From the sequence record SRR31156797_7637: a stretch of 52,036 nt of DNA, one strand, 5' to 3'. The translations under genes and the position numbers were made by a program. Numbering within the stretch: position 1 is the stretch's first letter; the number at the start of each line of letters is the position of its first letter. Below the pieces are notes generated by a model. It searched no databases. It saw only the letters and a list, made by a program, of their open reading frames with translations, and was not told the DNA's origin. Shown one piece after another: positions 1,152 through 42,453 of the stretch.

Positions 1152-1152
1152 C

Positions 1153-2932: not shown

Positions 2933-2964
2933 GATATTCCAACCACTTTCCGCTTTGAGCTTAC

Positions 2965-8663: not shown

Positions 8664-8692
8664 CTTTCAGATCAACACATTCGGACTACTGT

Positions 8693-9535: not shown

Positions 9536-9550
9536 GCGTTCTGGCAGAAG

Positions 9551-10240: not shown

Positions 10241-10241
10241 T

Positions 10242-11453
10242 ATGTCGGAAAGACTTGAAGCCAAGTACGGGCTGCCTGAAGATGTGAAGTTTTGCAGCCG
10301 TTGCGTCATGTCCAATCAAAGGCCTGCCTCCGCGGTAGAGTTCAAGCACCATTTGGAAAGCAGGAAGGCTACGCTCAATATCGACGAAAATGGGGTATGT
10401 GACGCCTGTAGGCTTGCAGAGCAGAAGGAGCGGGAGATCGATTGGGAAGAAAGGGAAAAAGAATTGCTCGCGCTCCTGGACAAGTACCGTAGAGACGATG
10501 GAAATTATGACTGCGTTGTGCCGGGAAGCGGCGGCAAAGACAGCGCATTTCAGGCGCATGTTTTGAAATATAAGTATGGTATGCATCCCCTGACAGTCAC
10601 GTGGCCGCCCATTTCATATACTGAATATGGTTATCAGAACTTCAGAAACTGGATCGATATTGGTGGATTTGATAATATCAGCTTCAATCGGAATGGCAGG
10701 GTCATGCGGCTTCTGACGCGGTTGGCCATCATAAATCTGCTTCACCCGTTTCAGACATTTATCCTGGGACAGAAAAACCTGGCACCCAAAATTGCACTGA
10801 AATATGGTATACCCCTTATTTTTTATGGTGAAAGCGAAGCTGAATATGGGAACCCTATCGCTGAGAGTACCACTGCTCTAAGGCGGAAAGCGTATTATGC
10901 AATGAAAAACCTGGATGAGATATATCTGGCTGGCATAACCATCAAGGAGCTCCGGGAGAAATATAAGGTTGCGTTGAGTGATTTAATGACCTTTTTGCCC
11001 CCAACGTTTGATGATATGGAAAAATCAGACATTCAGGTGCATTATCTGGGTTATTACCTCAAATGGACACCCCAGGAAGCATATTACTATGCGGTTGAGA
11101 ATACGGGTTTTAAGGCGAGGCCTTTTCGAACCCAGGGGACCTATAGTAAGTATAATAGCATCGACGATAAAATTGATGATTTACATTATTACACCACCTA
11201 CATCAAGTTTGGGCTGGGGAGAGCATCCTATGACGCATCCCAGGAGATCAGGAATCGACATCTTAGCCGGGAAGAGGGGATTGCCCTTGTCAGACGCTTT
11301 GATGGCGAGTTTCCTGACCGCTATTTTGGAGAGATTATGGAATATCTTGAGATGGATCCAGACTATTTTATGGAACTCTGCGACCAATTCAGATCACCAC
11401 ATCTATGGAAAAGAGAGAATGGCGAATGGAAGCTGAGGCATGAAATTGAATAA
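10242..11453 (+). CDS. N-acetyl sugar amidotransferase (WbuX/PseA/PtmG-like, PP-loop)
   Basis: CxxC...CxxC N-terminus, YDCVVPGSGGKDS PP-loop, YGESEAEYG, KFGLGRA...EIR. Confidence 0.92.
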   Translation: MSERLEAKYGLPEDVKFCSRCVMSNQRPASAVEFKHHLESRKATLNIDENGVCDACRLAEQKEREIDWEEREKELLALLDKYRRDDGNYDCVVPGSGGKDSAFQAHVLKYKYGMHPLTVTWPPISYTEYGYQNFRNWIDIGGFDNISFNRNGRVMRLLTRLAIINLLHPFQTFILGQKNLAPKIALKYGIPLIFYGESEAEYGNPIAESTTALRRKAYYAMKNLDEIYLAGITIKELREKYKVALSDLMTFLPPTFDDMEKSDIQVHYLGYYLKWTPQEAYYYAVENTGFKARPFRTQGTYSKYNSIDDKIDDLHYYTTYIKFGLGRASYDASQEIRNRHLSREEGIALVRRFDGEFPDRYFGEIMEYLEMDPDYFMELCDQFRSPHLWKRENGEWKLRHEIE

Positions 11454-12468: not shown

Positions 12469-14277
12469 ATGGGTAAAATGAAAGATCAGTCTTACAATTT
12501 GAGTTGTAACTCCTTGGTCAAACGGCATCTGGATAATCGCGGTATTGAATCACAGCTTTGGGAAGATCGCTTAGAAAATAGTGAGCTTTTTGGATTACAT
12601 AATGAACTCAGTATGCTCACACACAAATGGTATTTGGACAAGAATGAAGAAGATATTTCAGTGTTTGATGGATTCAGTATTGGTAACGCTATTGCAATAT
12701 ACGCTTACTGGGATCTGGAGAGCTGGGCTAGATTATTGTTTATTTTTGAAAAACTGGCTCAGGAAGGGGGTAGCCTTAATTTTCATGTTGCTTCTAAAAA
12801 CTATCTCCCTGAGCGGCTGTTAGCTTTTATCACAAGGATCAAAGCGGAATATGATTTTGATATCTCCCTCATCGAGCATAATATTTCAGGCAAATCAATT
12901 GAACTGGAACCAGGCTGGCTGTTGTCCTGCAATAGAAATCATACAGATCGAAATGTGAAACGAAGGAAATTAGTAAACTATTTAGCTGCCTTTACCGGAC
13001 ATCTTTCAAACGCCAAGGCTTGCAGAATAAGATGTTTCGTGCATGCGCCATCTGCTGGGTTTAATGAATATCTTGAGGCCCTTTATAGAGGGAAGCGTGA
13101 GAAACATATTAGGTTGTTTCACGACAATCATGGGGTTAGTGGCAGGATGTGGCTTTACGATTTACCGAGAGGAACTTTGGTCCAAATTCCTGCTTGGAAG
13201 TATAATGAGCCTACTCAAGATGAAATTTACCAATTAAGAAAGTACGCGAAAAGGGTAAGTGAGTTTTTGAAGCAAAATTCAGGATTATCTGATGTTTTGC
13301 TGCCATTGGGTAGTGAATTTTTTGAGAAGCATATTGTTGCGTATTTCAGGGATGCGGTACTTTGTCAAGCGCGTAAGTATCTATATTTAAAGAAGTTGTT
13401 TTTGAAGAACAAGATAAACGTTACCATCACTACAGGCGAAGCGAACCCTGAATCCTATATGTTCAAATATTGGATGGATAGAGCCGGTGGGACTAGTTTT
13501 TATTTGCCGCACGGAATTGTAAACAGATATCGGGAAGATACAAACTATTACTCTCTGGCGCATTATTTTTTTCAATATTCAGACTCTGAGATGAGGTCAT
13601 GGAGGCAAATCTATGGTATTGAGGGAAAAAGATTCCTGAAGGTTGGCTTCGGCAGTATCAATGGGAATGCAAAAGACTATCGTATGACCACAGGGAAGAG
13701 CGTTCGGATCTTGGTGCTGCAAGATGTTTTTAACCATTCATTGCTATCGAGAATTAACCTTTTTGATTACTATGAAAAACTAATTAAGGCGCTCTCAAAT
13801 ATAGGTGTTCCACAAATAGTTTTACGACCACATCCATTTTTTGAGGGTGAAGTTGTCGAAAAATTTATGAGAAGTATGGGGCTACTGCCGAATATAGTCT
13901 TGGAGGACCCGAGAAAGATTGGCCTATTGGAGTCTCTTAAAAGTAAAGATGTCATCATAGGGATGTATTCCACATGCCTCTACGAGGCCTTAATATCAAA
14001 GGTTTTCTATATCACATACGTTCCTAACTATGTGATGGATACAACAAGGGCGCTTTCGACTTTCTGGTTCCCGGAGTTGTATCCCACTCCGGTTGATACG
14101 CCCGAAGCTATTGTGGAGAGAATGAGGACATTTTTAAAACAGCCCCAGATTGAATATGATAAGTTCATGCATTCAATTGAAGAAATCGGGCTTTATAATT
14201 CGAATAAGGAAGAATTCTGGACTCAGATTTTTTCTATTAAGAACAATACGACGTTGACGAAGGCACGATACAATTAA
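12469..14277 (+). CDS. hypothetical protein; putative GT-B-fold CMP-ulosonate transferase
   Basis: 602-aa ORF; C-terminal half has YLPHG, VLRPHP and DVIIGMYSTCLYEAL motifs resembling sialyl/Kdo-transferase-like GT-B proteins. Confidence 0.55.
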   Translation: MGKMKDQSYNLSCNSLVKRHLDNRGIESQLWEDRLENSELFGLHNELSMLTHKWYLDKNEEDISVFDGFSIGNAIAIYAYWDLESWARLLFIFEKLAQEGGSLNFHVASKNYLPERLLAFITRIKAEYDFDISLIEHNISGKSIELEPGWLLSCNRNHTDRNVKRRKLVNYLAAFTGHLSNAKACRIRCFVHAPSAGFNEYLEALYRGKREKHIRLFHDNHGVSGRMWLYDLPRGTLVQIPAWKYNEPTQDEIYQLRKYAKRVSEFLKQNSGLSDVLLPLGSEFFEKHIVAYFRDAVLCQARKYLYLKKLFLKNKINVTITTGEANPESYMFKYWMDRAGGTSFYLPHGIVNRYREDTNYYSLAHYFFQYSDSEMRSWRQIYGIEGKRFLKVGFGSINGNAKDYRMTTGKSVRILVLQDVFNHSLLSRINLFDYYEKLIKALSNIGVPQIVLRPHPFFEGEVVEKFMRSMGLLPNIVLEDPRKIGLLESLKSKDVIIGMYSTCLYEALISKVFYITYVPNYVMDTTRALSTFWFPELYPTPVDTPEAIVERMRTFLKQPQIEYDKFMHSIEEIGLYNSNKEEFWTQIFSIKNNTTLTKARYN

Positions 14278-14308: not shown

Positions 14309-15751
14309 TTGAAATCATATAAAGAGAAAGCCGTTCAGGCGGTTAAATGGTCTTCAGTTACTATTGTATTGGGAAGGTGTCTAGGAATTGCCTTTTCAAT
14401 CATCAAATACAGGCTTCTGAACCCGGAAGATTTCGGCGTAATGGCCTTGGTTACGGCTGTATTTTCTATCTTTAGAATGATTCAGACCATGGGTTTTGGT
14501 GCCGTGTTGGTTCAAAGGGAGGAAATTGATGATGTCTTGATTAGTTCGGTTTTTTGGTTGACAGTGATTATATCGTCCTTTGTTTCCGTTTTCCTGATAC
14601 TGTTTTCGGGAATGATAAGCAGGTTTTATGGGGAGCACCTGCTTATTTATTTTGTTCCCATTGCGGCAGCGCAATTTTTGTTTAGCTCATTTCTCGTGAT
14701 TCAGGATTCGTTATTTGCTCGAGGCTTGAGATTTAAGGAAAAGGGCTTGATTGCACTGTTCGCAGCCGTGGCAGGGAATATTATTGTCATCGTCCTTGCC
14801 TTTCTCGATTTTGGCCCCTGGAGTCTTCTGTATGGCCTAATAGCGACAACGCTGGTCAATTTTCTGATCAATCTAAAATATTTAAAATGGTGGCCTTCAT
14901 TGGGATTCAATTGGCGCCAGCTGAAGCCTTCTTTTGGATTTGGTTTGAGCATAACCCTGCGAAAAATTCTTGGACAAATAATCATCGCCGCGCCTCCTCT
15001 CGTAATTGGAAAATTGATGGGTACGGAAATCCTCGGCATATTTACTTTTGCCGGTCGGATTACCAAAATGCTTGTCGGGCAGGTTGACGCGCTTCTGTCC
15101 CAAGTGCTACTGCCGGTGTTTTCAAGGATTCAAAACGATAAAAAGCGATTGGTGAAAGGCTACTTGAAGGTAAATCACTACTGTTTCCTGGCCATAATGC
15201 CCATGGTGGCTGGTTACCTTTTGGTTGGAGGGGATTTTATAAGCCTTGTATACGGAAATAAGTGGCTTCCTGGGTTGCTCATATCCCAAATTCTTGTAAT
15301 CTCCTTCTGTCTTGAGTCGATATACTCAAGAGGTTCGAGCCTTATTACGGCTTTCGGACGTCCGGAGTTGCTGTTGCGCATCGAGCTCCACATGTTTTTG
15401 CCTTTCATCATCGCACTTCTTGGTTCAGCTTATTATGGGATTGTGCCTTTAGTTATTGTTTTAGCTGTTGGAAAGTTTTTGACGTGTGTTTTGGTGCAAA
15501 TGATATTAAAAAGGCTTATTGGACTCAACCATATTGAATTTTTGCTTTCTATTCTTAAGCCGCTTTTCGCCTCTATTTTTATGTGTTGTACCCTGTATGC
15601 CGCAAAACAGATTCTTAGTGACCAAGTTTTCAAGGGACAAATGCTTGTCTCAATGATCGTCATTGGCGGCATTTCGTATTCTGTTTCCCTATTCTTACTC
15701 GAGAAGGACGAGTTAATTCAGACTGGCAAATTGCTTTTTAGCAGAAAATGA
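14309..15751 (+). CDS. wzx: oligosaccharide flippase (PST/MOP family, WzxC-like)
   Basis: About 12-14 hydrophobic segments, RLLNPEDFG, VLLPVFSRIQND, YGNKW. Confidence 0.9.
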   Translation: MKSYKEKAVQAVKWSSVTIVLGRCLGIAFSIIKYRLLNPEDFGVMALVTAVFSIFRMIQTMGFGAVLVQREEIDDVLISSVFWLTVIISSFVSVFLILFSGMISRFYGEHLLIYFVPIAAAQFLFSSFLVIQDSLFARGLRFKEKGLIALFAAVAGNIIVIVLAFLDFGPWSLLYGLIATTLVNFLINLKYLKWWPSLGFNWRQLKPSFGFGLSITLRKILGQIIIAAPPLVIGKLMGTEILGIFTFAGRITKMLVGQVDALLSQVLLPVFSRIQNDKKRLVKGYLKVNHYCFLAIMPMVAGYLLVGGDFISLVYGNKWLPGLLISQILVISFCLESIYSRGSSLITAFGRPELLLRIELHMFLPFIIALLGSAYYGIVPLVIVLAVGKFLTCVLVQMILKRLIGLNHIEFLLSILKPLFASIFMCCTLYAAKQILSDQVFKGQMLVSMIVIGGISYSVSLFLLEKDELIQTGKLLFSRK

Positions 15752-17643
15752 ATCTTTGTATAGATCCAATACTAAAGGAAATACTTGGAACTCGTGGCGT
15801 CGAATGTGAGATTTTCGACTCTGTCCTTTCTTTTTCAGAGAAGCAGAAGATGCTTGAGAATCTTGAATCGTTCGCCTCAAATTGGTTTTTGATTTACGGA
15901 AGGGATATAACAGAGTACCGAGGCGTGTCCATCGGGGCAGCGATACATGACGATGTGTTGATTTTTCTCTACTTTTTCTGCCATATCTCTTCAATTATTG
16001 AAAAGGTTAAAAGGTCAAATATTGTTTTTTATCAGAGTATTTCTTGCCTGCTTCCAGAACCCGTAGCAAAATTTTTGAAAGAACTAGGGGTGAAAGTAGT
16101 GACAACGCGTGACAGATACCCCTACCCGTGTTTTCGCCAGGCATTTGTAAAAGAGGCTAACGCAAGGAAGACATATTCAGGCATTCGTTATCGGCGGTAC
16201 CTACCGAAGATGGGTTACGGGTCGATGATCAAAGGGAAACTGAGATCTCTATACACTACTCTGCTGTGTATTGCATTATATCTTATTTATAAGAAACGGC
16301 ATAGGACTATCTATTTTTGGCCCATTAGAAGGCTGATGCCAATTCTATCAGATTTGGTTAATGCTGATAAGAAGAGGGATTTTAATTTAGTTGTCCCCTT
16401 CCCTCAGATAATTCAAGGTGTACAAGGAGTCAACACCAAGGAGTGGACTCGACCACTCAAAATGCTCCTGGATCTAAGAAGATTGGCAAAAAGAGGAATT
16501 TTCGTCGGGTCCTTACTGAGTGGCCATATGAGAACCTTTAGCCGTTTTAGAAAGCCGTCTGCTTGTAAGGCCTTGAAATCTAGATACCTGAAAAACGAAT
16601 CAAAAATTGGGAAGTTTGTTAAGGATACCTTGGAATTTACTGATGGTGAGGTCCTTGAATCCTTTACCAGTGAACTGAGATCATTTTTTCTTTGTCATCT
16701 AAATGATTTTGTCCACGTAATCGAACTATCCTATCTGGAGTTCATGTTCTTTCGACCAGAAACTTATGTGGTTGAATTTGCAAATCCTTTCCTCTCGCAG
16801 GTCGTGGCAAGATACAATAAAAATATTTTCTTTACGCATGTCAGCAGATTTTTGAACAACCAATATTTTTGTGAGGATTTTTTCAGGAAAATAAATGGTA
16901 ATTTTCAAATATTGGTAACCTCGGAATTTGAGAATGAGCGCATTTTGAAGCAGGGATTTCAGAAAAAATCAATAATCGCTGCTAGTGAAAAATATTTTAA
17001 GGCGGCTTCATCACCATTTGGACACCGGAAAGAGCAAATTACCAATTACTTGAAAGGGAAACAGGTTCTCGTTATTCCCCCTCCTTTGAGAGTGCTTTGG
17101 GATTTTCGAATTTTCCTGTCTGGAGAATTTTTTGGAAAGTTTTTGCAAGATGTTATCTTGGCTCTTGATACTCTCTCGGTATCCAGAATTATAGTTAGGC
17201 CAAACCCTGGCCAAAACAGAGCAATTAATGATTTGGGCTTTATAGCAAACGATGTTTATAAGCTTCTTGTTAAAGATATCGAGCTGAAATGTAAAGTGCT
17301 AATTCGTGATAACGCAGCATCTGAAGATTTGCTTCGAGATTTGGATAGGTCGGCTTTGGTGATCGGTACTCTTTCAGCTGTTTCAATTGACAGTGCATTG
17401 GCTGGGTTGGATTATGTGGCCTATGATAATTCGGTAGTCCCTTTTCCTGAGTCAATGAACTTATCTATTTTTAGTGATGGAGGTCCAATTCCTGTAATAT
17501 CAAGCAAATACAAACTTATAGAATACTTGAGAAAATATGAGCCAAATAATGGCAGGAAAATAATCAATTTCATATCTCATTATGAGGCCGATTTTGATGT
17601 GTTAGATCAGAATTTCATTTTCAACTTGACAATGAAAAAATAG
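15748..17643 (+). CDS. hypothetical protein; putative GT-B-fold transferase, paralog of 12469..14277
   Basis: N-terminal motifs shared with the 12469 ORF; C-terminal IIVRPNP and LVIGTLSAVSIDSALAG. Confidence 0.5.
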   Translation: MNLCIDPILKEILGTRGVECEIFDSVLSFSEKQKMLENLESFASNWFLIYGRDITEYRGVSIGAAIHDDVLIFLYFFCHISSIIEKVKRSNIVFYQSISCLLPEPVAKFLKELGVKVVTTRDRYPYPCFRQAFVKEANARKTYSGIRYRRYLPKMGYGSMIKGKLRSLYTTLLCIALYLIYKKRHRTIYFWPIRRLMPILSDLVNADKKRDFNLVVPFPQIIQGVQGVNTKEWTRPLKMLLDLRRLAKRGIFVGSLLSGHMRTFSRFRKPSACKALKSRYLKNESKIGKFVKDTLEFTDGEVLESFTSELRSFFLCHLNDFVHVIELSYLEFMFFRPETYVVEFANPFLSQVVARYNKNIFFTHVSRFLNNQYFCEDFFRKINGNFQILVTSEFENERILKQGFQKKSIIAASEKYFKAASSPFGHRKEQITNYLKGKQVLVIPPPLRVLWDFRIFLSGEFFGKFLQDVILALDTLSVSRIIVRPNPGQNRAINDLGFIANDVYKLLVKDIELKCKVLIRDNAASEDLLRDLDRSALVIGTLSAVSIDSALAGLDYVAYDNSVVPFPESMNLSIFSDGGPIPVISSKYKLIEYLRKYEPNNGRKIINFISHYEADFDVLDQNFIFNLTMKK

Positions 17644-17907
17644 AAAAATGTTGCGGAATATACAAATAACGTTGTACTCTCGATATGAAGAAGGGTCTGT
17701 ATTTTCTCAAAGGCAATAGAATTATTCTCCATATTTTATTATCCCTGGTTATTGATTTACATTAGCAGTATTTATGGCTTCTATTAATTTTCTCGAAGGT
17801 GATAAAGACGTGAGCCAAAACTTGATATGTAGCTAAATGAAAGTTTACACATGTAGGTAGCGGTAAGTGAATAAGTTAACGGGGTAGTTTTAGCGGGAGT
17901 TCGTCAT

Positions 17908-18669
17908 TTGAAAATTGTTCGATACCAAAGCGGAAGTGATAGACCAGAATACGGTTGCGTTCAAGACCAAATGATTTTCAGTATTTGCGGAGAACCGCTT
18001 GGTGATTACAGCATTGGTAAGAAAGTGGGGCCGCTAGAAAGTGTGAAGCTCCTTTCGCCTTGCATACCTTCCAAAATAGTAGCTGTCGCAATTAATTTTC
18101 CGGGCATAGATGGATATCATCCTGATATGAGCGAACCGATGGTGTTTGTCAAGCCCGCAACAAGCGTTTGCGCACCTGGGGAAACTGTCACGAACCCCTT
18201 TCCAGGTTTGCCGATGTGGGGCGAGGCTGAATTGGGGGTTGTTGTTCGTGAGGTCCCTAAGAATGCAGATGAAAAGCAGGCAAGAAACGGTATTCTTGGT
18301 TTTACGATCGGCAATGATGCTACGGTGGAAAATATTGAAGGAAGAGACCATCATTTGGCGAGATCAAAGTGTCCCGATAAATTTTGCCCGCTTGGTCCCT
18401 GGATAGATACGGATTTCGATGCCTCCGATTGTTTAATAGAGGCAATACAAAACGGTGAAGTTATTAGAAGGGGTAGATCAAGTGAGCAGGTTTGGCAATG
18501 GCCGCGTATCATTTCCTGGCTTTCTACATGGATTACCCTAAAACCTTGGGATGTCGTGTTGACGGGCAACCCACCTGATACAGTTGGAATGCGGTATTTG
18601 GAGAATGGTGATATATACACTGCCAAAATTGAAGGGTTAGGAGAATTGACCAACAAGTTTTTAACATAA
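17908..18669 (+). CDS. fumarylacetoacetate hydrolase family protein
   Basis: PSKIVAV, EPMVFVKP, EAELGVV, GFTIGND, FCPLGPWI, DVVLTG; TTG start with GGGAG RBS. Confidence 0.88.
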   Translation: MKIVRYQSGSDRPEYGCVQDQMIFSICGEPLGDYSIGKKVGPLESVKLLSPCIPSKIVAVAINFPGIDGYHPDMSEPMVFVKPATSVCAPGETVTNPFPGLPMWGEAELGVVVREVPKNADEKQARNGILGFTIGNDATVENIEGRDHHLARSKCPDKFCPLGPWIDTDFDASDCLIEAIQNGEVIRRGRSSEQVWQWPRIISWLSTWITLKPWDVVLTGNPPDTVGMRYLENGDIYTAKIEGLGELTNKFLT

Positions 18670-18685
18670 TAATGGAAGAGAAAAA

Positions 18686-19537
18686 ATGTATGATTTTTAC
18701 TTAGGTTCGAAAGAGGATATTAATGATGATGAGATCAAGTACCTCATCTCCATCAAAAGAATGATGCCAAGATGGGTGAATTCACTTCCTGATTCCGAAT
18801 ACATGGCTCTTGCAAAGATTCTCGATGAACAGGGCAGTAATTTGGCCCCGGATGAGCATCCTGTTTTTGTTGAGACGGGTGCAGGTGCAAGCAGCCTTCT
18901 GTTTGCTTTCTACGCACTTAAATATGATGGACTTGCCTTTTCCTGGGACCTCAATGGTGAAAAGGGTTCTTTGGTCAGGACCATATGTAATGAAACCATT
19001 TGCAATCATTTCGGAAAACACATTGACAAGCATTGGAAACTCGTGGCTTTTGACAGCCTTTCCGAATACTTGGGCTTACCAATACTTACAGACCTGGTCT
19101 CTCATGTGGACGTTTTTTTTCACGACAGTGAACACGTATGGCGAACGATAAGAAAGGAGATCGAATGCGTTATGCCTCTTTTGCGGGATGGATCAGTCGT
19201 TGCACTCGACGATGCGAACCTCACCTTTTTACACACCAATTTGGGATATGTTAATACATTTCGAAAAAAGCTGGGCCTACAAATTGTATCTGAGCCATAC
19301 CAAAATACATGTGATCCGTTTTATATCGAGGCCGAAAGGCTTCTAAACTCCCATTGGGAAAGCGTGGAAAATTTGGCCGATGTTTATAAAGAAACCTATC
19401 TTGATGATCCGTATTACCGGTATTATAGCGCTGAATTTGGGATCAACAAGGGTACGGGTGCCGTGAGCGAACAGGGGCTTGAACATCGATTTGAAAGCTG
19501 GCGTGTATTTTCCAAAAAGAAACCAGGGAGGCGATAA
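18686..19537 (+). CDS. conserved hypothetical protein, methyltransferase-like (Methyltransf_24-type motifs)
   Basis: VETGAGASS (motif I-like), FFHDSEH, GSVVALDD. Confidence 0.55.
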   Translation: MYDFYLGSKEDINDDEIKYLISIKRMMPRWVNSLPDSEYMALAKILDEQGSNLAPDEHPVFVETGAGASSLLFAFYALKYDGLAFSWDLNGEKGSLVRTICNETICNHFGKHIDKHWKLVAFDSLSEYLGLPILTDLVSHVDVFFHDSEHVWRTIRKEIECVMPLLRDGSVVALDDANLTFLHTNLGYVNTFRKKLGLQIVSEPYQNTCDPFYIEAERLLNSHWESVENLADVYKETYLDDPYYRYYSAEFGINKGTGAVSEQGLEHRFESWRVFSKKKPGRR

Positions 19538-20299
19538 ATGCGAACTGTTATCGGGATACCCGCACGAATGGCATCAAGCAGATTCCCTGGCAAGCCATTA
19601 AAAGAGATTCTTGGTGTGTCGATGGTCGAACATGTTTATAAACGTTGTTCCCTGAGTAAATACGTAGAGGATGTTTTTGTTGCGACATGTGATGATGAAA
19701 TTCGGGAGTCAGTGAATGCATTTAATGGTACCGTAATTATGACGGATCCGGGAATTCCCCGACCCGGCCTCCGAGTCGCAGCGGCCTGTGAAACACTCGA
19801 TTTGGATGGCGATGATATCGTTGTTGTCGCCCAAGGCGATGAACCGCTTGTTCATCCGGATATGATAGATTTGGGTCTGAAGCCGTTAATTACTGAGAAA
19901 GACTTGATGACGACGAATCTCGTGGAGGAGATAGTCACAGATGAAGAATGGCGTGATCCGAATAATGTCAAGGTTGTTACCGACCTGCAAATGAACGCCA
20001 TATACATGTCTCGAAGTCCTATTCCATCTGCCGATCACGAAGAGGAGCGAGGCGAAAGACTGGTTCAATTGGGTATTATCTTTTTCCGATGGAGCTTTCT
20101 TAAAGAATTCAATGCGCTGGAACCTACTCCACTGGAAAAAGCTGAATCTATAGAAATGATAAGAGCCATTCAACATGGGTATAAGGTGAGAATGATAAAG
20201 TCTCCCTATATCAGTAAGGCTGTCGATACGCAGGATGATTTGCTGGCGGTTGAGGACTTAATGAAAAATGATCCTGTCTGGCCTTTGTACAGACCGTGA
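19538..20299 (+). CDS. KdsB-like 3-deoxy-ulosonate cytidylyltransferase
   Basis: IPARMASSRFPGKPL, QGDEP, DPNNVKVV, YMSRSPIP, LEKAESIEMIRA, VDT. Confidence 0.9.
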   Translation: MRTVIGIPARMASSRFPGKPLKEILGVSMVEHVYKRCSLSKYVEDVFVATCDDEIRESVNAFNGTVIMTDPGIPRPGLRVAAACETLDLDGDDIVVVAQGDEPLVHPDMIDLGLKPLITEKDLMTTNLVEEIVTDEEWRDPNNVKVVTDLQMNAIYMSRSPIPSADHEEERGERLVQLGIIFFRWSFLKEFNALEPTPLEKAESIEMIRAIQHGYKVRMIKSPYISKAVDTQDDLLAVEDLMKNDPVWPLYRP

Positions 20300-20349
20300 C
20301 TGTTTTAGAATCGCCTTGACCACGGGTCGGCGATCTTTGGAGGTAATGC

Positions 20350-21144
20350 ATGATAACAAATCGAATGAAACAGGCGCTTAAGGCTGGAGAAACCGTTTTC
20401 GGCACTTGGTCCATGTTGCCTTCTCCGGAAGTGGTGAGTGTGCTGAGTTCGGCGGGTCTTGATTTTGTCATTATTGACATGGAGCATGCGCCCATGTCCT
20501 TTGAAACGGCACAGAACCAGATTTATGCTATCGGAAACTATCCTTGTACACCGGTTATCCGGTTGGGTGAAAACAGTGAAGCTTCAATCCTCCGCGCTCT
20601 TGAGAGCGGCGCGCAATCTATTCTCGTTTCGCATATCTCTTCCGCAAAAGAGGCTGAGGCTGTTGTTCGGGCTGCGAGGTACTACCCGGATGGGGAAAGA
20701 GGCTTATCGCCATTTACTTTTCACCATGGGTATTCGGATGTTAAACTTCCTGAGAAACTGCATGCTGCCAACGAGCAGACCTTCGTCGGCGTTTTGGTTG
20801 AGGGAGAGGAAGGAATACACAATTTGGAGGAGATTGCGGACATCCCCGGTCTGGATATGGTCTATCTGGGGATTTATGATATGTCCCAGGTGTTGGGTAT
20901 TCCGGGCGAACTGAACCATCCGAAGGTGCTGTCTATGCTGAAGGATTGTGTTAAGATGGCGGAAGCAAAAGGCATTGTTGCCGGTTCAGTCGCAAGAGAT
21001 CAGGATTATCTGGCTCTAATGTTTGAACTTGGTTTTCGGTTTATTTCCTATCGTGTTGACAATGCAGTATTGAGGGAAGGCTTTGAGACGCCCCGTCATT
21101 GGTACAATGAATTGACTACGCGAAAGGAACAGAGTCAATCATGA
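20350..21144 (+). CDS. HpcH/HpaI class II pyruvate aldolase family protein
   Basis: DFVIIDMEH, YYPDGERG, LVEG, GIYDMS...GIPGELNHP. Confidence 0.88.
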   Translation: MITNRMKQALKAGETVFGTWSMLPSPEVVSVLSSAGLDFVIIDMEHAPMSFETAQNQIYAIGNYPCTPVIRLGENSEASILRALESGAQSILVSHISSAKEAEAVVRAARYYPDGERGLSPFTFHHGYSDVKLPEKLHAANEQTFVGVLVEGEEGIHNLEEIADIPGLDMVYLGIYDMSQVLGIPGELNHPKVLSMLKDCVKMAEAKGIVAGSVARDQDYLALMFELGFRFISYRVDNAVLREGFETPRHWYNELTTRKEQSQS

Positions 21145-22184
21145 ATAAAGGAGAATTGAAAGTCGGAATTGCGGGGTATGGTATAGTTGGAAAAAGGCGG
21201 CGGGAATTTATAGATAAAAACCCCTTTATGCGAACAGTGGCGGTGAGTGATATTCGATTTGGGAACTGCGGTACTTTGGACGATGGTGTGACGTACTATC
21301 CAGATTACAAATACCTTCTAGATGGTGATTTGGATGTGCTTTTTATCAGTTTGCCGAATTATTTGGCGGCAGGTGCCACAAAAGCCGCATTGGATCGTGG
21401 CCTCCATGTATTTTGTGAGAAACCGCCGGGTCGAGATGTCGCTGACATAAGGATGGTAAGAGAAATTGAAAAGGCCAGTCCGCATCTGAAATTGAAATAT
21501 GGTTTTAACCATCGTTATCATGGGTCGGTTCTGAAAGCGAAAGAGATCATTGAGTCAAGAAAGTATGGACAGCTTGTGAACTTCCGCGGTGTGTATGGCA
21601 AAAGCAGCATAGTGTCCTTTGCGAGCGGGTGGCGGTCTGAGAGAAAATATTCTGGTGGTGGTATTCTTTTGGATCAAGGTATTCATATGCTGGATATGTT
21701 GAGGCTTTTCTGTAGTGATTTCAACCAGGTCAAGAGCTTTGTCTCCAACGATTATTGGCAGCACGACGTGGAAGATAATGCTTTTGCCATTATGAGGGAT
21801 AAGTCGGGTCGCGTAGCTTCGGTGCATTCCAGTGCTACACAGTGGCAGCATAGATTCCGTTTGGAGATTGTTTTGCAAGAAGCGCTACTCGAATTATCAG
21901 GAATTCTGTCGAGTTCGAAAAGCTATGGCGAAGAAAAATTAAAAATTGTTCCCAGGGAAAATGAAAGCGTTATCGGCTCGGTGCATGAGACCAGTATCGT
22001 ATATCTTGAAGACAATTCATGGAAAGAGGAAGTTGACGAGTTTTCAGATCTCATCGCCCAAAACCAACCTGTGGTCAATGGAAACAGCTTCGATGCTCTA
22101 AAAGTTATGGAAATGGTATACAGAATCTATTACGCGGATGAAAACTGGCGGCTAAAATTCGGTATTCCAAATCCGGATGCGTGA
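21141..22184 (+). CDS. Gfo/Idh/MocA family oxidoreductase
   Basis: GYGIVG, HVFCEKPPG, GFNHRYH, GGGILLDQGIHMLD, VEDNA. Confidence 0.9.
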   Translation: MNKGELKVGIAGYGIVGKRRREFIDKNPFMRTVAVSDIRFGNCGTLDDGVTYYPDYKYLLDGDLDVLFISLPNYLAAGATKAALDRGLHVFCEKPPGRDVADIRMVREIEKASPHLKLKYGFNHRYHGSVLKAKEIIESRKYGQLVNFRGVYGKSSIVSFASGWRSERKYSGGGILLDQGIHMLDMLRLFCSDFNQVKSFVSNDYWQHDVEDNAFAIMRDKSGRVASVHSSATQWQHRFRLEIVLQEALLELSGILSSSKSYGEEKLKIVPRENESVIGSVHETSIVYLEDNSWKEEVDEFSDLIAQNQPVVNGNSFDALKVMEMVYRIYYADENWRLKFGIPNPDA

Positions 22185-22234
22185 GTTTTTCAAAGGAAAT
22201 TGCCTTGTGATGGAAAATGTTGAGATGCGCCCGA

Positions 22235-22261
22235 CTCGCGCAGAGGCGCCAAGGCGCGAAA
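22235..22261 (+). repeat. solo left arm of 8-bp-unit palindromic repeat (family A)
   Basis: ctc-gcgcagag-gcgccaag-gcgcgaaa matches the left arms at 51331, 51473 and 51951. Confidence 0.75.
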
Positions 22262-22307
22262 ATAAGGCATGGGATATTGGAAACCTTAAAAGGAAAGTTT
22301 CAGAGAA

Positions 22308-22925
22308 ATGAACAATATTGAACACGCGTGCTCGAAAGCGGATAAAATTAGCGATTTTGCGCGAGGATATTTTGAGTATTTGGACAAAATTTTAGCGCAT
22401 TTCGACGTTGTCGCATTGGATCAGCTTGCCGAAGCGTTTCAGGAAGCGAGAAGGGAAGGCAATACTATTTTTGTCATCGGGAACGGCGGGTCTGCAACTA
22501 CCGCATCAACCATGGCCAACGATATGGGGTTCGATGTCGTGAAAAAGGCACGAATCAATAAGCCTTTCAAAGTTCTTGCCCTAACAGATAATACCGGGGT
22601 GATGTCGGCCATTGCAAATGATGTCGGATATGAAAATGTGTTTGTTGGGCAACTGGAGATCCAATTCAGGGCTGGAGACATGATCATATGTATTTCTGCC
22701 AGCGGGAATTCGCCAAACGTTGTCAAAGCCGCTGAATGGGTAAAAGAACGGGGCGGGAAGGTTGTTGGATTACTGGGTTTTGACGGTGGGCGTTTGAAGG
22801 AAATTTGTGACATCGTGTTGCATGTAGAGGCGCAAAACGGGGAATATGGTCCGGTAGAAGATGCTCATCTGATTTTCAATCATGTTCTTACCAGTTGGTT
22901 TCAGTGCAAACTGAGAAAATCATAA
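22308..22925 (+). CDS. SIS-domain sugar-phosphate isomerase (GmhA-related)
   Basis: IFVIGNGGSA, AIAND.GY..VF, ISASGNSPNV, GFDGG, YGPVEDAH. Confidence 0.88.
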   Translation: MNNIEHACSKADKISDFARGYFEYLDKILAHFDVVALDQLAEAFQEARREGNTIFVIGNGGSATTASTMANDMGFDVVKKARINKPFKVLALTDNTGVMSAIANDVGYENVFVGQLEIQFRAGDMIICISASGNSPNVVKAAEWVKERGGKVVGLLGFDGGRLKEICDIVLHVEAQNGEYGPVEDAHLIFNHVLTSWFQCKLRKS

Positions 22926-22935
22926 ACATTTTATA

Positions 22936-23050
22936 GACAGGATCCACAGGATTCTCAAGAATTTTTTCCGCTTAAAGCGGAATGGTTATTTTTCGGCTTC
23001 GTTCGGAAACCGAGAAAGCAATATACCCAATTAATCCTGTTAGTCCTGTC
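22936..23050. repeat. intergenic inverted-repeat (MITE/REP-like) element, family B
   Basis: gacaggatccacaggatt (22936-22953) versus aatcctgttagtcctgtc (23033-23050): 15/18 inverted match; internal hairpin ttccgct-taa-agcggaa (22966-22982). Confidence 0.75.
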
Positions 23051-23087
23051 CAAACATAATAATTACAATTAGGCTGAGGCTGTGCAT

Positions 23088-24020
23088 ATGGGTATTTTGA
23101 AGGGTGCAAAAGTTTTGATTGGGCCATCGTCATTTGCGGTCACTGACAAATCGCCTTTGGAACGGCTGTTATCAGCTGGATGTGAAGTGATTGATAATCC
23201 GTTCAAACGAAAATTGACAAAACCGGAGCTTCTGAATTTACTGAGTGACAATGTTACGGGTCTGATAGCAGGGCTGGAACCTTTGGACCGTGAAGTTCAG
23301 CAAAAATCAAGCCTAAGGGTCATTTCCCGCGTTGGTTCCGGACTGTCTAATGTGGATTTGAGAGCGGCAAAAGAACTGGGTATAGCTGTTCGTTTTACAC
23401 CGGATGGGCCTACCAACGCGGTTGCGGAGTTGACAATCGGAGCTTTGCTCAGTCTGATTAGGTTTGTTCCTGAAATGGATACCGACCTCCATGCCGGCAA
23501 ATGGAATAAAAAAATTGGCTTTCAACTGGAGGGTAAAACAGTGGTTATTATTGGTTTCGGAAGAATCGGGAACCGTGTGGCGGAATTACTATCGCCTTTT
23601 GGGGTTAGAATTTTGGTTGTGGATCCCAATTTGGCAGAAAAAGATATCGATTATCCTGTTTTATTGCTCGCAGACGCTTTGCCGGAGGCGGATATCATCA
23701 CAATCCATAGCAGCGGGGAAGAATGTGTTTTAGGCACTGAAGAGTTTTTCAGATTGAAGCATGGCGTCTACATTTTAAACGCTGCTCGGGGCGGGTTAAT
23801 TTCCGAACCATTGCTAATCGAGGCTCTGGAATCTGGAAAAGTGGCGGGCGCATGGTTGGATAGTTTTCAAAATGAACCGTATGAAGGTCCGCTTGCAAAT
23901 TATCGGCAGGTAATCCTGACGCCACATGTTGGTTCATATACCTATGAATGCCGGAAAAAGATGGAAACAGATGCGGTGGAAAATCTGATCAATGCCTTTG
24001 CCGGGTCTGAACGCAAATGA
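23088..24020 (+). CDS. D-isomer-specific 2-hydroxyacid dehydrogenase (SerA-like, no ACT domain)
   Basis: ISRVGSGLSNVD, AVAELTIG, IIGFGRIG, NAARGGLI, ILTPHVGS. Confidence 0.9.
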   Translation: MGILKGAKVLIGPSSFAVTDKSPLERLLSAGCEVIDNPFKRKLTKPELLNLLSDNVTGLIAGLEPLDREVQQKSSLRVISRVGSGLSNVDLRAAKELGIAVRFTPDGPTNAVAELTIGALLSLIRFVPEMDTDLHAGKWNKKIGFQLEGKTVVIIGFGRIGNRVAELLSPFGVRILVVDPNLAEKDIDYPVLLLADALPEADIITIHSSGEECVLGTEEFFRLKHGVYILNAARGGLISEPLLIEALESGKVAGAWLDSFQNEPYEGPLANYRQVILTPHVGSYTYECRKKMETDAVENLINAFAGSERK

Positions 24021-24796
24021 TCCTCGAAAATAACGCAAATGATATTGAAGAACAATACCGATGCCTTTCTGTTGCGGAGAAGGCCTCGGAAAGGGCGGGA
24101 AATCATTTACAGGAGTTAATGGGTTCTCAAATCAATGTTGTAGAGGAACTTCCACGAGACATCAAATTGGAGGCGGACCTGGAATCAGAGTCCATAATTC
24201 TGGAGGTTCTCAAGCGAGAAACAGATTTTCCGATTTTGACGGAAGAGCGTGGGTTACTACTCGATCGCAAAACCAGTACAGAAACCGAATACCGGTGGAT
24301 CGTGGATCCTTTGGATGGCAGCCTGAACTTTTCACGCGGGATGCCAATGTGTTGTGTGTCCATTGCCCTTTGGCAAGTCGCCAAACCGATTTTGGGAGTC
24401 GTTTACGATTTCAATCGGAGTGAAATGTACAAAGGGCTGGTTTCCGAAGGTACGTGGCTGAACAACAAGCCAATCAGCCCTTCTGAAGTGGATGAAGTTT
24501 CAAAGGCGGTTCTGGCTACGGGTTTCCCGGTGAGCAGTGATTTTTCTGAAGCATCTATTATGGCTTTCGCCAAGGATGTTCGCGCTTACAAAAAGATCCG
24601 TCTTCTGGGTTCCGCCGCTTTGTCTTTGGCCTATGTTTCTTGTGGCAGGGTAGACGCATATAGAGAGGATAATATCAAGATATGGGACGTTGCGGCCGGC
24701 CTCGCATTGGTCAATGCAGCCGGAGGACGAACAGGTTGCCGCGGTTACCCGCAAGATGAAATTGTCGATGTCTGGGCCGGCATTGTAATTGATTAA
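24017..24796 (+). CDS. inositol monophosphatase family sugar-phosphate phosphatase
   Basis: ILTEE, WIVDPLDGSLNF, RLLGSAAL, WDVAAG. Confidence 0.92.
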   Translation: MILENNANDIEEQYRCLSVAEKASERAGNHLQELMGSQINVVEELPRDIKLEADLESESIILEVLKRETDFPILTEERGLLLDRKTSTETEYRWIVDPLDGSLNFSRGMPMCCVSIALWQVAKPILGVVYDFNRSEMYKGLVSEGTWLNNKPISPSEVDEVSKAVLATGFPVSSDFSEASIMAFAKDVRAYKKIRLLGSAALSLAYVSCGRVDAYREDNIKIWDVAAGLALVNAAGGRTGCRGYPQDEIVDVWAGIVID

Positions 24797-29801: not shown

Positions 29802-31595
29802 ATGTGTGGAATATTTGGCTTTACTTTTAATTGCCGGACCCCTGAGGTATTTCTTCGTAAGATGGGCCAGGCGATGATTCACCGCGGCCCTGATGGGGAG
29901 GGTTACTATTGGGACGAAAATGTCAGCATGGGAATGAGGCGGTTAAGCATTATTGATATAGAAAAGGGTAATCAGCCTTTCTTCAACCATGACAAGTCGA
30001 TAATTGTCTTTTGTAACGGTGAAATATATAACTTCAAGGAACTTCGTGAGATACTGAGGAGAAAGGGATATCTCTTTTATACCAACAGCGACATTGAAGT
30101 TATTCCTCATCTGTATCAGGAATACGGGATTCAATTTGTCTCTAAGCTGAACGGCATGTTTGCCATTGCGCTTTATGACAAAAATATTCAAAAGGTCTTC
30201 TTAATTCGGGACCGCTTGGGTATTAAACCGCTTTACTACACCATATCAAACGGATCGCTCATTTTTTCTTCGGAAATCAAGCCGATTCTTGCTCAAGAAA
30301 GAATTAGCAAACAGATTGATTGCCAGGCTTTAAGTACCTATCTGGATTTGATGTACATCCCGGCACCCATGTCTCCGTTTTCTGAAATCAGGAAGCTGGA
30401 ATCGGGGACATATTTGAGCTGGACACGGAACGGTCACTCCTTAGAACGCTATTGGGATCTTGCTCCCACAAATGTGAACGGCTCGGAGGATAAATTTTTT
30501 GAAGGATTGCTTGAGTTACTGGAAGACAGTATCCATTTAGAGCTTATCAGCGATGTGCCGGTGGGTTCATTCTTGAGCGGGGGAATTGACAGTTCTTTTG
30601 TTACGGCTGTGGCGGCAAAATTGTCGCATAAGCAGTTTTCAGCTTTTCATATGAGGTGGAAGGGAATTCATGGGAAGATCGATGAAAGCAAATACGCCCA
30701 TCAAGTGGCCGACAAATATGGTGCTTCCAAGATCTTCAAGGATGTGAACAAGATTGATGTGGTCGGCCTGTTGCCGAAACTGGTGTACCATCTTGAAGAG
30801 CCATTTGCCGACGCTGCATTTATTCCTACGTTCTTTTTGGCGGACATTGCAAAGAAAACCGTTAAGGTCATATTAAGCGGGGCCGGCGGTGATGAGCTTT
30901 TTGGGGGATACCCTCGTTATCGGAAGTATTCGTTTTTGAAATCCGTTATCGGCAAAGTTCTATACAATAGAGGAAAGGCCTTCAGCTATTTTGATGTGTG
31001 CAAAACAGGTTTCCAGAAGAAATGGAGTAAGCTTTTTCCGTGGTATAAGCCTGACTTTTTCAGAGCCTCTTTCGAGAAGGAATATGTCGAAAATAGAACG
31101 TATGATCCTTTCAATGCGATGATGAAAAGTGACATCTCATATTACTTGCAGGATGATATTTTATTCCTCAATGATAAAGTCACGATGGCGGCTTCTTTGG
31201 AATGTCGCGTTCCATTGCTTGACCATCGTATTGTTGAACTGGCATGTGCCATACCCTCTTCACTGAAGATTAGGAACGGGCATAGAAAACATCTGTTCAA
31301 CCGAGTCGCGGAAAGATACTTGCCCCGTGAAGCTATTTATCGCCAGAAAGAGGGTTTCGGGTTCCCCATTGAGAAGCCGATTAATGAGTTTAAAGAACTT
31401 TATTTTGATATTCTCTTGGAACAGGGTTTTTTGGCCAAGAACGGATTGATTGATCAAAACCGTCTCAGGAGACTTCTTCTAAAGATCTCCTATACCAGAG
31501 AAGAAAGCTGGCTGTATTGGCAGATATTGATACTGGAAATATGGTTTCAATTGTTTATGGAAAACAGGCCGTATGAAGATATCTATGGTTTTTAA
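29802..31595 (+). CDS. asnB: asparagine synthase (glutamine-hydrolysing)-like glycan amidotransferase
   Basis: MCGI N-terminus, HRGPD, RRLSIID, NGEIYN, RDRLGIKPLY, LSGGIDSS, LSGAGGDELFGGY. Confidence 0.92.
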   Translation: MCGIFGFTFNCRTPEVFLRKMGQAMIHRGPDGEGYYWDENVSMGMRRLSIIDIEKGNQPFFNHDKSIIVFCNGEIYNFKELREILRRKGYLFYTNSDIEVIPHLYQEYGIQFVSKLNGMFAIALYDKNIQKVFLIRDRLGIKPLYYTISNGSLIFSSEIKPILAQERISKQIDCQALSTYLDLMYIPAPMSPFSEIRKLESGTYLSWTRNGHSLERYWDLAPTNVNGSEDKFFEGLLELLEDSIHLELISDVPVGSFLSGGIDSSFVTAVAAKLSHKQFSAFHMRWKGIHGKIDESKYAHQVADKYGASKIFKDVNKIDVVGLLPKLVYHLEEPFADAAFIPTFFLADIAKKTVKVILSGAGGDELFGGYPRYRKYSFLKSVIGKVLYNRGKAFSYFDVCKTGFQKKWSKLFPWYKPDFFRASFEKEYVENRTYDPFNAMMKSDISYYLQDDILFLNDKVTMAASLECRVPLLDHRIVELACAIPSSLKIRNGHRKHLFNRVAERYLPREAIYRQKEGFGFPIEKPINEFKELYFDILLEQGFLAKNGLIDQNRLRRLLLKISYTREESWLYWQILILEIWFQLFMENRPYEDIYGF

Positions 31596-40076: not shown

Positions 40077-40082
40077 GCTTAT

Positions 40083-42364: not shown

Positions 42365-42453
42365 GTATTAAATTTTGCTCGCCCAATTATCGATTTTAAG
42401 AATTAATAATGCAGGACGAGATTTAGATACTGGGGAAATCTGGGAGGGTCATT

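Follow-up and report, generated by a model that had tools for sequence, protein, structure and literature searches.

Gene content and organization of the cassette

We analysed a 52,036-nucleotide stretch of DNA from sequence record SRR31156797_7637 (the window), and in particular a cassette of eight intact plus-strand open reading frames (ORFs) located between positions 17908 and 24796. An original prediction, made from the sequence alone, had viewed this cassette as an undescribed pathway to an ulosonic acid activated with cytidine monophosphate (CMP), mirroring with unrelated enzymes the synthesis of 3-deoxy-D-manno-octulosonate (Kdo). Families were assigned by Pfam and NCBIfam profile scans of 44 ORFs of the window (16 and 28 in two sets), and the eight co-directional genes were found with the predicted families, at exactly the predicted coordinates.

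The first gene (17908-18669) encodes a protein of the FAA_hydrolase (FAH) family (Pfam, 128 bits), with an additional match to Rv2993c-like_N. It is followed by genes for a Methyltransf_24 methyltransferase (MT24; 18686-19537; 39.1 bits for a cut-off of 26.3), a KdsB-like cytidylyltransferase (19538-20299; CTP_transf_3, 144.7 bits), an HpcH_HpaI aldolase (20350-21144; 112.7 bits for a cut-off of 25), an oxidoreductase matching the GFO/IDH/MocA family of Pfam (GFO; 21141-22184), a SIS_2 isomerase of 205 amino acids (aa) (22308-22925; 68.7 bits), a D-2-hydroxyacid dehydrogenase (2HADH; 23082-24020; 2-Hacid_dh_C, 140.3 bits, no ACT domain) and a phosphatase of the inositol monophosphatase (IMPase) family (24017-24796; Inositol_P, PF00459, 165.7 bits).

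The start codon of the KdsB-like gene directly abuts the stop codon of the MT24 gene, 4-bp overlaps join the aldolase to the GFO gene and the dehydrogenase to the IMPase gene, and the widest gaps within the cassette (123 and 156 bp) flank the SIS gene. Upstream lies an intergenic gap of 264 bp (17644-17907) with 65.9% A+T, the AT-rich gap from which the cassette had been delimited. The downstream limit is not obvious, a GT4 gene starting 48 bp past 24796, so that the gene set of the presumed contiguous cassette stands but its end is less certain. Between positions 17000 and 26500 neither promoter-like sites (20, for 16.2 ± 3.6 in shuffled sequences) nor terminator-like sites (8, for 8.9 ± 2.8) were in excess. 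The 156-bp gap that separates the SIS from the dehydrogenase gene contains a terminator-like hairpin (22966-22982) with a 7-bp stem and a T-rich tail, a kind of site not enriched over shuffles.

The aldolase and the cytidylyltransferase

Among solved structures, the aldolase comes closest to HpaI enzymes (7v8t, E 5e-41, and 2v5j), followed by YfaU and GarL. Residues H46, R71, E151 and D177 do not vary among the subfamily members compared (16 of 16), and in both 7v8t and 2v5j they line up with the HpaI His, Arg, Glu and Asp that we take to be catalytic and metal-binding. The cassette enzyme keeps the residues with which class II pyruvate aldolases carry out catalysis and bind their metal. It scores below all equivalog cut-offs (168.5 bits against 368.8 for HpaI, 135.7 against 406.75 for GarL and 124.8 against 441 for the YfaU type). 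The subfamily comprises at least 390 proteins at E ≤ 0.001, the best 120 of which are 54-68% identical to the cassette enzyme, none of them being informatively named.

The KdsB-like protein matches the KpsU structure 1gq9 with an E-value of 3e-34, and in this alignment it retains the PAR..S.R.PGKPL, QGDEP, SRSPIP and VDT motifs. The position of the KpsU motif SGTDR is occupied by RPGLR, as expected from the prediction, which had pointed to PRPGLRV as the replacement of this motif. All 11 cassette orthologues aligned share R75, P76, L78, R79, V80 and A81 of this loop (I-x-R-P-x-L-R-V-A). The predicted CTP- and Mg-binding motifs are conserved, while the putative sugar-side loop is swapped across the entire subfamily. 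The protein scores 153.1 bits with TIGR00466 (cut-off 155.2), a borderline miss, passes NF003952 (241 bits for a cut-off of 193) and misses NF009905 (251.3 bits for 255). As it passes one KdsB subfamily model and falls 2 bits short of the equivalog, automatic annotation would call it KdsB.

All five diderm carrier genomes possess, outside the cassette, a canonical KdsB (198-360 bits) and a KdsA/KDO8P synthase (328-430 bits), the cassette copy scoring 130-157 bits. Among five other carriers, namely Raphidiopsis and metagenome-assembled genomes (MAGs) of Thermoleophilia, Anaerolineales, Parcubacteria and Methanomicrobiales, none has a KDO8P synthase above cut-off, with MAG incompleteness as a caveat for four of the five, and in each of them the cassette enzyme is the top CTP_transf_3 match. 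Both tests were carried out on the genomes of relatives. Because a second copy is found in five of five diderms, and because the gene is present in five of five genomes without KdsA above cut-off, the cassette cytidylyltransferase is, as judged from these comparisons, a distinct KdsB paralogue that would not serve housekeeping CMP-Kdo synthesis. An enzyme activating canonical Kdo alone, the outcome named beforehand as speaking against a separate pathway, is unlikely on the same grounds. The predicted use of unrelated enzymes holds for the aldolase, which is unrelated to KdsA, but neither for the cytidylyltransferase, a KdsB homologue, nor for the isomerase, which shares the SIS fold of KdsD.

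Conservation of the pair in other glycan loci

Searches with the aldolase, keeping one genome per species, yielded 38 loci, 13 of which were considered close (aldolase 51-62% identical) and compared with the window proteins using tblastn. A scan of metagenomes with the KdsB-like protein retained 80 loci, 17 of them close (at least 53% identity). Loci are designated L001 and so on, and a pair is termed well-flanked (n = 24) when each of its sides extends for 5 kb or more.

The KdsB-like gene lies immediately upstream of the aldolase gene in 12 of the 13 close genome loci, the one miss (L010) having a flank of 763 bp only, and the two genes adjoin each other in 14 of the 17 close metagenome loci. 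The three misses there are L044, with a flank of 137 bp, L056, where a divergent HpcH-like gene lies 700 bp off, and L057, where an HMGL-like and a HAD gene are found. The order of the pair is reversed in L016, L017 and the archaeal L019. Altogether, 47 of the 119 sequences examined carry the two genes adjacent and on the same strand. A natural KdsB-like::HpcH fusion of 515 aa, the only one found among longer proteins, occurs in Raphidiopsis brookii D9.

Hosts of the close loci are Syntrophales, Syntrophorhabdaceae, Gamma- and Betaproteobacteria, a Coxiellaceae MAG and the cyanobacterium Raphidiopsis brookii D9, as well as MAGs of Thermoleophilia, Oligoflexus, Anaerolineales and Parcubacteria. 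More distant pairs were found in Aestuariibacter salexigens, Desulfobacterales, Halodesulfovibrio and a Methanomicrobiales archaeon. The pair thus spans Desulfobacterota, Proteobacteria, Cyanobacteria, Chloroflexota, Actinomycetota, Parcubacteria and a methanogen MAG, and all pair loci are glycan loci, with genes for Wzx, glycosyltransferases and nonulosonic acid (NulO) synthesis. The cassette is a real recurring unit of glycan loci across phyla, as the prediction had required of its genes.

Several variants of the unit were observed. In L079 (7126-9777), L088 (7983-10445) and 16 more metagenome loci, a KdsB-like gene (40-50% identity) stands with a 2HADH gene and a gene for a 'cyclase'-family (PF04199) hydrolase, with no aldolase gene; in L079 this trio is flanked by sulfotransferase genes. 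It may represent a separate, likewise undescribed module. L057 (5662-10607), devoid of any HpcH aldolase, and L016 (5014-12092) carry HMGL-like (pyruvate carboxyltransferase-type) and HAD phosphatase genes beside KdsB-like and TIGR04326-like genes, L016 being composed of genes for an HMGL-like protein, a 4Fe-4S protein, a HAD protein, HpcH, the KdsB-like protein and a large unclassified protein. L081 (8001-13916) combines a KdsB-like protein, a divergent HpcH, 2HADH, an NDP-sugar-type epimerase, HAD, 6-phosphogluconolactonase and a PhoX-like beta-propeller protein, and the same gene names appear in the list given for a Leptospira locus in the available part of a preprint (10.1101/771931). B12-binding radical S-adenosylmethionine (SAM) genes lie near the cassettes of L005 (2600-4105), L013 (6734-8227), L019 (3473-4855) and L088 (6208-7908), and none is found in the window; such enzymes may C-methylate the sugar acid.

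The remaining genes and the presumed removal of phosphate

The FAH protein, of the HpcE/Rv2993c-like type, has as its best solved relatives unassigned mycobacterial FAH proteins (4pfz, E 7e-41). Further relatives are 4dbf, deposited as a 2-hydroxyhepta-2,4-diene-1,7-dioate isomerase and which we take to be the oxaloacetate decarboxylase Cg1458, and the L-2,4-diketo-3-deoxyrhamnonate hydrolase 8gsr (E 5e-24). By analogy with such relatives, which act on 2-keto-3-deoxy acids, the protein would fit an ulosonate intermediate. It is the most conserved protein of the cassette (63-71% identity in L001-L009) and was found in 11 of the 13 close genome loci and in 18 of the 24 well-flanked pairs. The 2HADH, whose best NCBIfam match is PGDH (192.3 bits for a cut-off of 454) and which is PGDH/PdxB-like, is likewise present in 11 of the 13, with 63% identity to the L001 and L002 orthologues, and in the other variants it always stands beside a phosphate-removing gene. 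The FAH protein and the dehydrogenase are therefore the best-conserved partners of the aldolase/KdsB-like pair; the prediction had taken both for mere tailoring enzymes.

The MT24 protein, which has no NCBIfam match, probably O-methylates the sugar acid; it occurs in 11 of the 24 well-flanked pairs, and in the relatives its slot is filled by orthologues or by other SAM methyltransferases. GFO, present in nine of the 13 close genome loci, has inositol 2-dehydrogenase as its best NCBIfam match (78.7 bits for a cut-off of 355).

The SIS protein, present in eight of these 13 loci, consists of a single SIS_2/SIS domain without CBS domains, different from the KdsD/KpsF architecture of SIS plus two CBS. 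Its description as GmhA-related but atypical proved apt: it is no true GmhA, scoring 98.1 bits with the GmhA model TIGR00441 (cut-off 209.45), it contains the ATTASTM and VEDAH motifs quoted for it, and residues H64, E68, Q175 and H183 of Burkholderia pseudomallei GmhA, presumably the zinc and catalytic residues in this numbering, correspond to T68, D72, E184 and H192, so that only the last is kept. The phosphate-loop motif SASGNSPN is retained. Neither a PfkB nor a GHMP kinase was found among the 44 ORFs scanned, and the sole sugar-1-phosphate nucleotidyltransferase (5147-6199, with a CBS domain) belongs to the legionaminic acid block 12 kb upstream, which agrees with the reported lack of a heptose kinase and of a heptose nucleotidyltransferase.

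The phosphatase scores below all NCBIfam equivalog cut-offs and has no HAD match, its match being to PF00459, so that it does not share the HAD fold of KdsC. By tblastn, no IMPase gene was found within the cassette in any of the 13 close genome loci. An IMPase-like match in L008 lies on the opposite strand beside an ATP-sulfurylase/APS-kinase gene and is probably CysQ, and only one of the 80 metagenome loci, L104, shows an IMPase match (38% identity). For a serovar-linked region lying upstream of rfb in Leptospira, the gene list that the available part of the same preprint gives (10.1101/771931) holds the same gene families, among them an IMPase with an HpcH-type aldolase, a phosphoheptose isomerase, KdsB, 6-phosphogluconolactonase and NeuB.

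In nine of the 13 close loci, three consecutive genes encode instead a FabG-like short-chain dehydrogenase/reductase (SDR), an AroB-related TIGR04425 'sugar phosphate phospholyase (cyclizing)' (470-485 bits) and the dehydrogenase; in L001 the AroB-like gene lies just beyond the fetched stretch. No AroB-like (DHQS-like) gene was detected by tblastn in the window, which thus falls outside the TIGR04425/TIGR04326 type of cassette. HAD phosphatase variants are represented by L015, L016, L019 and L081. Altogether, a phosphate-removing gene was found within 9 kb of 14 of the 24 well-flanked pairs (AroB-like TIGR04425 in nine, HAD in four and IMPase in two, L008 having two). A phosphorylated intermediate is plausible, since the SIS phosphate loop is kept and a phosphate-removing gene is near these 14 pairs. 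The predicted mode of phosphate removal varies among the relatives, and the window is an unusual variant in which an IMPase replaces the AroB-like/SDR pair. The four-step mirror of Kdo synthesis (isomerase, synthase, phosphatase and activating enzyme) consequently does not hold as conserved logic, the IMPase being found in none of the 13 close genome loci, SIS in eight and GFO in nine.

Candidate transferases

As the window encodes two CMP-transferases, one PseF-like and one KdsB-like, two enzymes transferring CMP-activated sugars are expected. Directly upstream of the gap, a plus-strand ORF (15748-17643) encodes a 631-aa protein without sequence match in Pfam, NCBIfam or the PDB, of a family that is rare (33 representatives at E ≤ 0.001 among 1.84 billion). 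Its AlphaFold2 model (pLDDT 84.5, pTM 0.87) matches GT-B enzymes over residues ~184-631, with TagF 3l7k (Z 11.7, root mean square deviation 6.5, 311 aligned), MurG 7d1i (Z 11.2) and WaaA 2xci (Z 10.3). It also resembles UDP-GlcNAc 2-epimerases, and the two Rossmann domains of a GT-B fold are recognized (Z 10-11.7) without singling out any one glycosyltransferase family; Foldseek retrieved NeuC, the CMP-bound capsule polymerase 8a0c and WbbB (E 1e-6 to 1e-4). An independent metagenome locus, L053, holds a homologue (27% identity over 637 columns, E 2e-53) whose gene directly precedes the order FAH-MT24-KdsB-like-HpcH-GFO-SIS, and we therefore extend the functional unit to position 15748. Because it precedes the cassette both here and in L053, the protein with this modelled GT-B fold is the likely transferase of the cassette product. 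An HP motif is found in eight of 14 family members; the window copy shows RPNP in its place, and in its three closest relatives the His position is occupied by G, T or G. Kinship with TIGR04326 was considered and is not claimed (hhalign probability 1.2%).

The second candidate is a 602-aa protein with an RPHP motif (12469-14277, plus strand), for which no match was found in Pfam, NCBIfam or the PDB and no homologue by a word-index search. It resembles TIGR04326-like proteins weakly in hhalign (probability 78%, E 1.8e-5, 132 C-terminal columns including the HP motif), and its fold model is poor (pLDDT 60). Next after the cassette, the relatives encode a protein of ~600 aa that belongs to TIGR04326 or lies close to it (558 bits in L002), and in which K-x-H-P is invariant in eight of eight. 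When the TIGR04326-like profile was compared with the PDB, KpsC beta-Kdo transferases came first at this motif, with a non-significant E-value of 0.08.

Proposed pathway and alternatives

Gene order, family membership, catalytic motifs, the conserved pairing and the KdsB paralogy were all computed from the sequences. From them we infer which way the aldol reaction runs, what all the substrates are, in which order the steps proceed and which protein is the transferase, as follows. The SIS protein would convert a ketose phosphate into an aldose phosphate, and the HpcH aldolase would join pyruvate to the aldehyde, giving a 4-hydroxy-2-oxo acid (a 3-deoxy-2-ulosonate) and replacing the phosphoenolpyruvate (PEP)-dependent KdsA or NeuB by an unrelated enzyme. 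The IMPase would strip the terminal phosphate before or after the aldol step, and GFO, 2HADH and FAH may modify the carbon skeleton or its stereochemistry. The KdsB-like enzyme would then form the CMP-sugar acid, to be O-methylated by the MT24 protein and added to the repeat unit by a GT-B-fold protein (the 631-aa protein or the 602-aa protein with the HP motif), after which Wzx (14309-15751) would flip the unit. We give an even chance to the cassette being, as its sequences suggest, one variant of a widespread glycan-precursor module with a class II pyruvate aldolase and a KdsB-paralogue cytidylyltransferase at its core, providing a PEP-independent route to a CMP-activated ulosonic acid. The exact product is not deducible from the sequence, and no observation made here supported a heptose acceptor or the suggested 10-carbon acid.

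A broader version, which seems rather unlikely, would make the HpcH/KdsB-like pair the mark of a whole family of PEP-independent ulosonic acid pathways in Bacteria and Archaea. Phosphate would be removed either by hydrolysis (IMPase, HAD) or by the AroB-like phospholyase with a ketoreductase, the latter giving CMP-activated omega-deoxy or carbocyclic, quinate-like 'carba-ulosonic' acids, and the window would represent a hydroxylated, O-methylated member transferred by the hitherto unclassified GT-B family of the 631-aa protein.

Several observations weigh against a synthetic aldolase pathway. HpcH aldolases, FAH enzymes and sugar-acid dehydrogenases form a classic catabolic set, and the synthetic direction is read solely from the glycan-locus context. 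The IMPase is missing from all 13 close genome cassettes, and ten of the 24 well-flanked pairs have no phosphate-removing gene detectable by BLAST, a method weak for HAD. The fusion rests on a single record. The KdsB-like protein passes NF003952 and misses TIGR00466 by 2 bits only, so Kdo, or an epimer of Kdo made by the aldolase, is still conceivable as the product. Finally, of the 63 distant KdsB-like genes (40-53% identity), 18 adjoin a 2-hydroxyacid dehydrogenase gene and only 16 an aldolase gene, from which it follows that the alpha-keto acid could instead come from the oxidation of an aldonic acid.

Such an oxidative route, in which GFO oxidises C1 of the aldose phosphate supplied by SIS to a lactone, FAH opens it, the dehydrogenase oxidises C2 and the IMPase removes the phosphate, leaving a 3-hydroxy 2-ulosonic acid for the KdsB-like enzyme to activate, is unlikely in our estimation but deserves to be retained. 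The aldolase would then have a side role only (C3/C4 epimerisation or chain exchange), and elsewhere the lactone hydrolase would be a 6-phosphogluconolactonase or the 'cyclase'-family enzyme. It makes linear use of five of the eight genes, and the nearest named relatives of the dehydrogenase are SerA and PdxB, which oxidise C2 of omega-phospho-aldonates. The dehydrogenase gene overlaps the IMPase gene here and the AroB-like gene in L005, L006, L008 and L011 and is near the HAD gene in L015 and L081, the KdsB-like and 2HADH genes are adjacent without an aldolase in the 18 distant loci, and the resulting hept-2-ulosonate 7-phosphate would be a natural substrate of the AroB-like enzyme. To these is added the 6-phosphogluconolactonase of the L081 cassette, also listed for the Leptospira locus in the part of the preprint available (10.1101/771931). 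Against it, in the 17 close metagenome loci the 2HADH gene never adjoins the KdsB-like gene, for 14 adjoining HpcH genes and one fusion, and the invariant catalytic residues of the aldolase would be left without a task. It also needs a lactonase of the FAH family, none of which is known to us.

An aldolase pathway could also start from hydroxypyruvate, made from 3-phosphoglycerate by the dehydrogenase and the IMPase and used by the aldolase as its nucleophile to give a 3-hydroxy (Ko-like) ulosonic acid. We attach a small probability to this variant. It would account for PGDH being the top NCBIfam match of the dehydrogenase (192 bits) and for the 4-bp overlap of the dehydrogenase and phosphatase genes, and the solved relatives of the aldolase include HpcH-family 'hydroxyketoacid aldolases' (6r62, E 1e-18), which we assume to use hydroxypyruvate. 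These are, however, far more distant than the closest solved relatives, the pyruvate-specific HpaI enzymes (E 5e-41), and the AroB-like phospholyase of most relatives would presumably not act on 3-phosphohydroxypyruvate.

Ordinary Kdo supply, by a CMP-Kdo gene copy dedicated to the capsule or O-antigen in the manner of KpsF/KpsU and with the other genes as passengers, is quite improbable. Group 2 capsule loci do hold dedicated second copies of Kdo genes, which provides a precedent, and the scores with NF003952 and TIGR00466 would suit such a copy. Yet no KdsA-type gene was found among the 44 ORFs of the window, the same cassette is present in five of five genomes without KDO8P synthase above cut-off, monoderm and archaeal MAGs included, the isomerase is GmhA-like and without CBS domains, unlike KpsF/KdsD, and the loop change is fixed throughout the subfamily. 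That the genes are catabolic ones for sugar acids, as in non-phosphorylative rhamnose or fucose breakdown, merely located in a glycan locus, is hardly credible, for although the family make-up matches (FAH with 8gsr, E 5e-24; aldolase with YfaU 2vws, E 5.5e-35), 47 of the 119 sequences hold the pair in a same-strand, often overlapping array with cytidylyltransferase, methyltransferase and transferase-like genes, Pfam reveals no catabolic-operon transporter, dehydratase, lactonase or regulator in the cassette, and no score comes anywhere near a catabolic equivalog cut-off.

The surrounding locus

ORF and family scans indicate that the whole window is one long plus-strand surface-polysaccharide locus. 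It begins with a complete legionaminic-type NulO gene set (138-8663), identified by profile matches to a LegC-family aminotransferase (522.6 bits), NeuB (511.2) and NeuC (485.7), together with a NeuD-like acetyltransferase, the CBS-nucleotidyltransferase, a GFO oxidoreductase, a PseF-like CMP-transferase and a PtmA-like SDR. WbuZ/HisH/WbuX-type amidotransfer genes follow on the same strand (8651-11453, profile matches), and the combination with the NulO genes suggests an acetamidino-modified NulO. Next come a methyltransferase gene and those for the 602-aa protein, Wzx and the 631-aa protein, up to the cassette.

On the 3' side of the cassette lie genes for glycosyltransferases, an ArnA-like UDP-xylose synthase, an asparagine-synthase-like amidotransferase, two heparinase II/III-like proteins and a phosphonate set. 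The amidotransferase gene (29802-31595), a counterpart of which is present in the related locus L001 (17721-19523), adjoins the heparinase-like genes (31573-33411 and 36724-38781), which thus sit within a biosynthetic locus. The plus-strand phosphonate module (38778-43518) comprises a cytidylyltransferase::PEP mutase fusion (PEP mutase, 410 bits), a phosphonopyruvate decarboxylase (479 bits), a PsrA-like Fe-ADH (181 bits, under cut-off) and a protein that matches Glyphos_transf weakly, and the window glycan probably bears a (hydroxy)ethylphosphonate group as well. A tie between the cassette and the phosphonate genes (38778-42364) was rejected because no PEP mutase is near the cassette in the relatives. 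A 715-aa protein (44711-46858) combines two oxidoreductase domains, one of the zinc-type alcohol dehydrogenase kind and one of the GFO/IDH/MocA family.

Comparison with known systems

A full-text literature search turned up no publication that connects HpcH-type aldolases with cytidylyltransferases or ulosonic acids, nor any naming TIGR04425 or TIGR04326. Unassigned peaks (m/z 407 and 440) obtained with 1,2-diamino-4,5-methylenedioxybenzene (DMB) in Leptospira, in the available part of Ricaldi 2012, are suggestive only. The CMP-activated C10 ulosonic acids of Magnetospirillum described in the SugarBase preprint were considered as an explanation and rejected, as they are N-acylated and NulO-like and, in the portion of that preprint available, without gene link to the cassette.

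The module is real, conserved and chemically uncharacterised. All CMP-ulosonic acid routes described to our knowledge (Kdo, sialic, legionaminic and pseudaminic acid) begin with a PEP-dependent synthase, KdsA or NeuB, and genome mining for ulosonic acids uses these two as markers. If the proposed pathway is true, an aldolase-based route would be invisible to such mining, yet it is seemingly common. Identification of its product would add one or more new acidic sugars to bacterial and archaeal surface glycans and give functions to two orphan NCBIfam families, TIGR04425 and TIGR04326, and would yield new biocatalysts with which pyruvate could be turned into compounds resembling Kdo or sialic acid.

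A close likeness in gene content is with the TIGR04425/TIGR04326 (O_ant_LIC13510) cassette of the relatives, in which both families stand beside the same FAH, KdsB-like, HpcH, GFO, SIS and 2HADH genes, whereas the window has neither family and carries an IMPase and two unclassified large proteins instead. The catabolic pyruvate lyases (Kdo aldolase, EC 4.1.2.23, N-acetylneuraminate lyase, and HpaI, YfaU and GarL) are comparable with the cassette aldolase, of which the last three are the nearest solved relatives, and the reaction between pyruvate plus an aldose and a 3-deoxy-2-ulosonate is an established reversible one. Those enzymes are degradative and have no link to a cytidylyltransferase, and the cassette aldolase scores below their equivalog cut-offs.

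The NulO pathways (NeuB/LegI/PseI with NeuA/LegF/PseF), a set of which lies 10 kb upstream in the window, resemble the cassette in their arrangement within glycan loci, where genes for a synthase and a CMP-transferase come after those for the precursor. Their synthase is, however, the PEP-dependent NeuB and their activating enzyme belongs to the NeuA/PseF branch, which the cassette enzyme matches only at E 3.6e-4 (PseF). The CMP-Kdo pathway (KdsD/KpsF, KdsA, KdsC, KdsB/KpsU) has in common with the cassette an isomerase, the condensation of a C3 unit with an aldose, a phosphatase and CMP activation by a member of the KdsB family. It differs in condensing by means of the PEP-dependent KdsA, where the cassette would use a metal-dependent HpcH-fold pyruvate aldolase. 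The cassette isomerase is GmhA-like without CBS domains, its phosphatase is an IMPase, not a HAD enzyme, and not conserved, its FAH, GFO, 2HADH and methyltransferase have no counterpart in Kdo synthesis, and the cassette occurs in genomes without a KdsA above cut-off.

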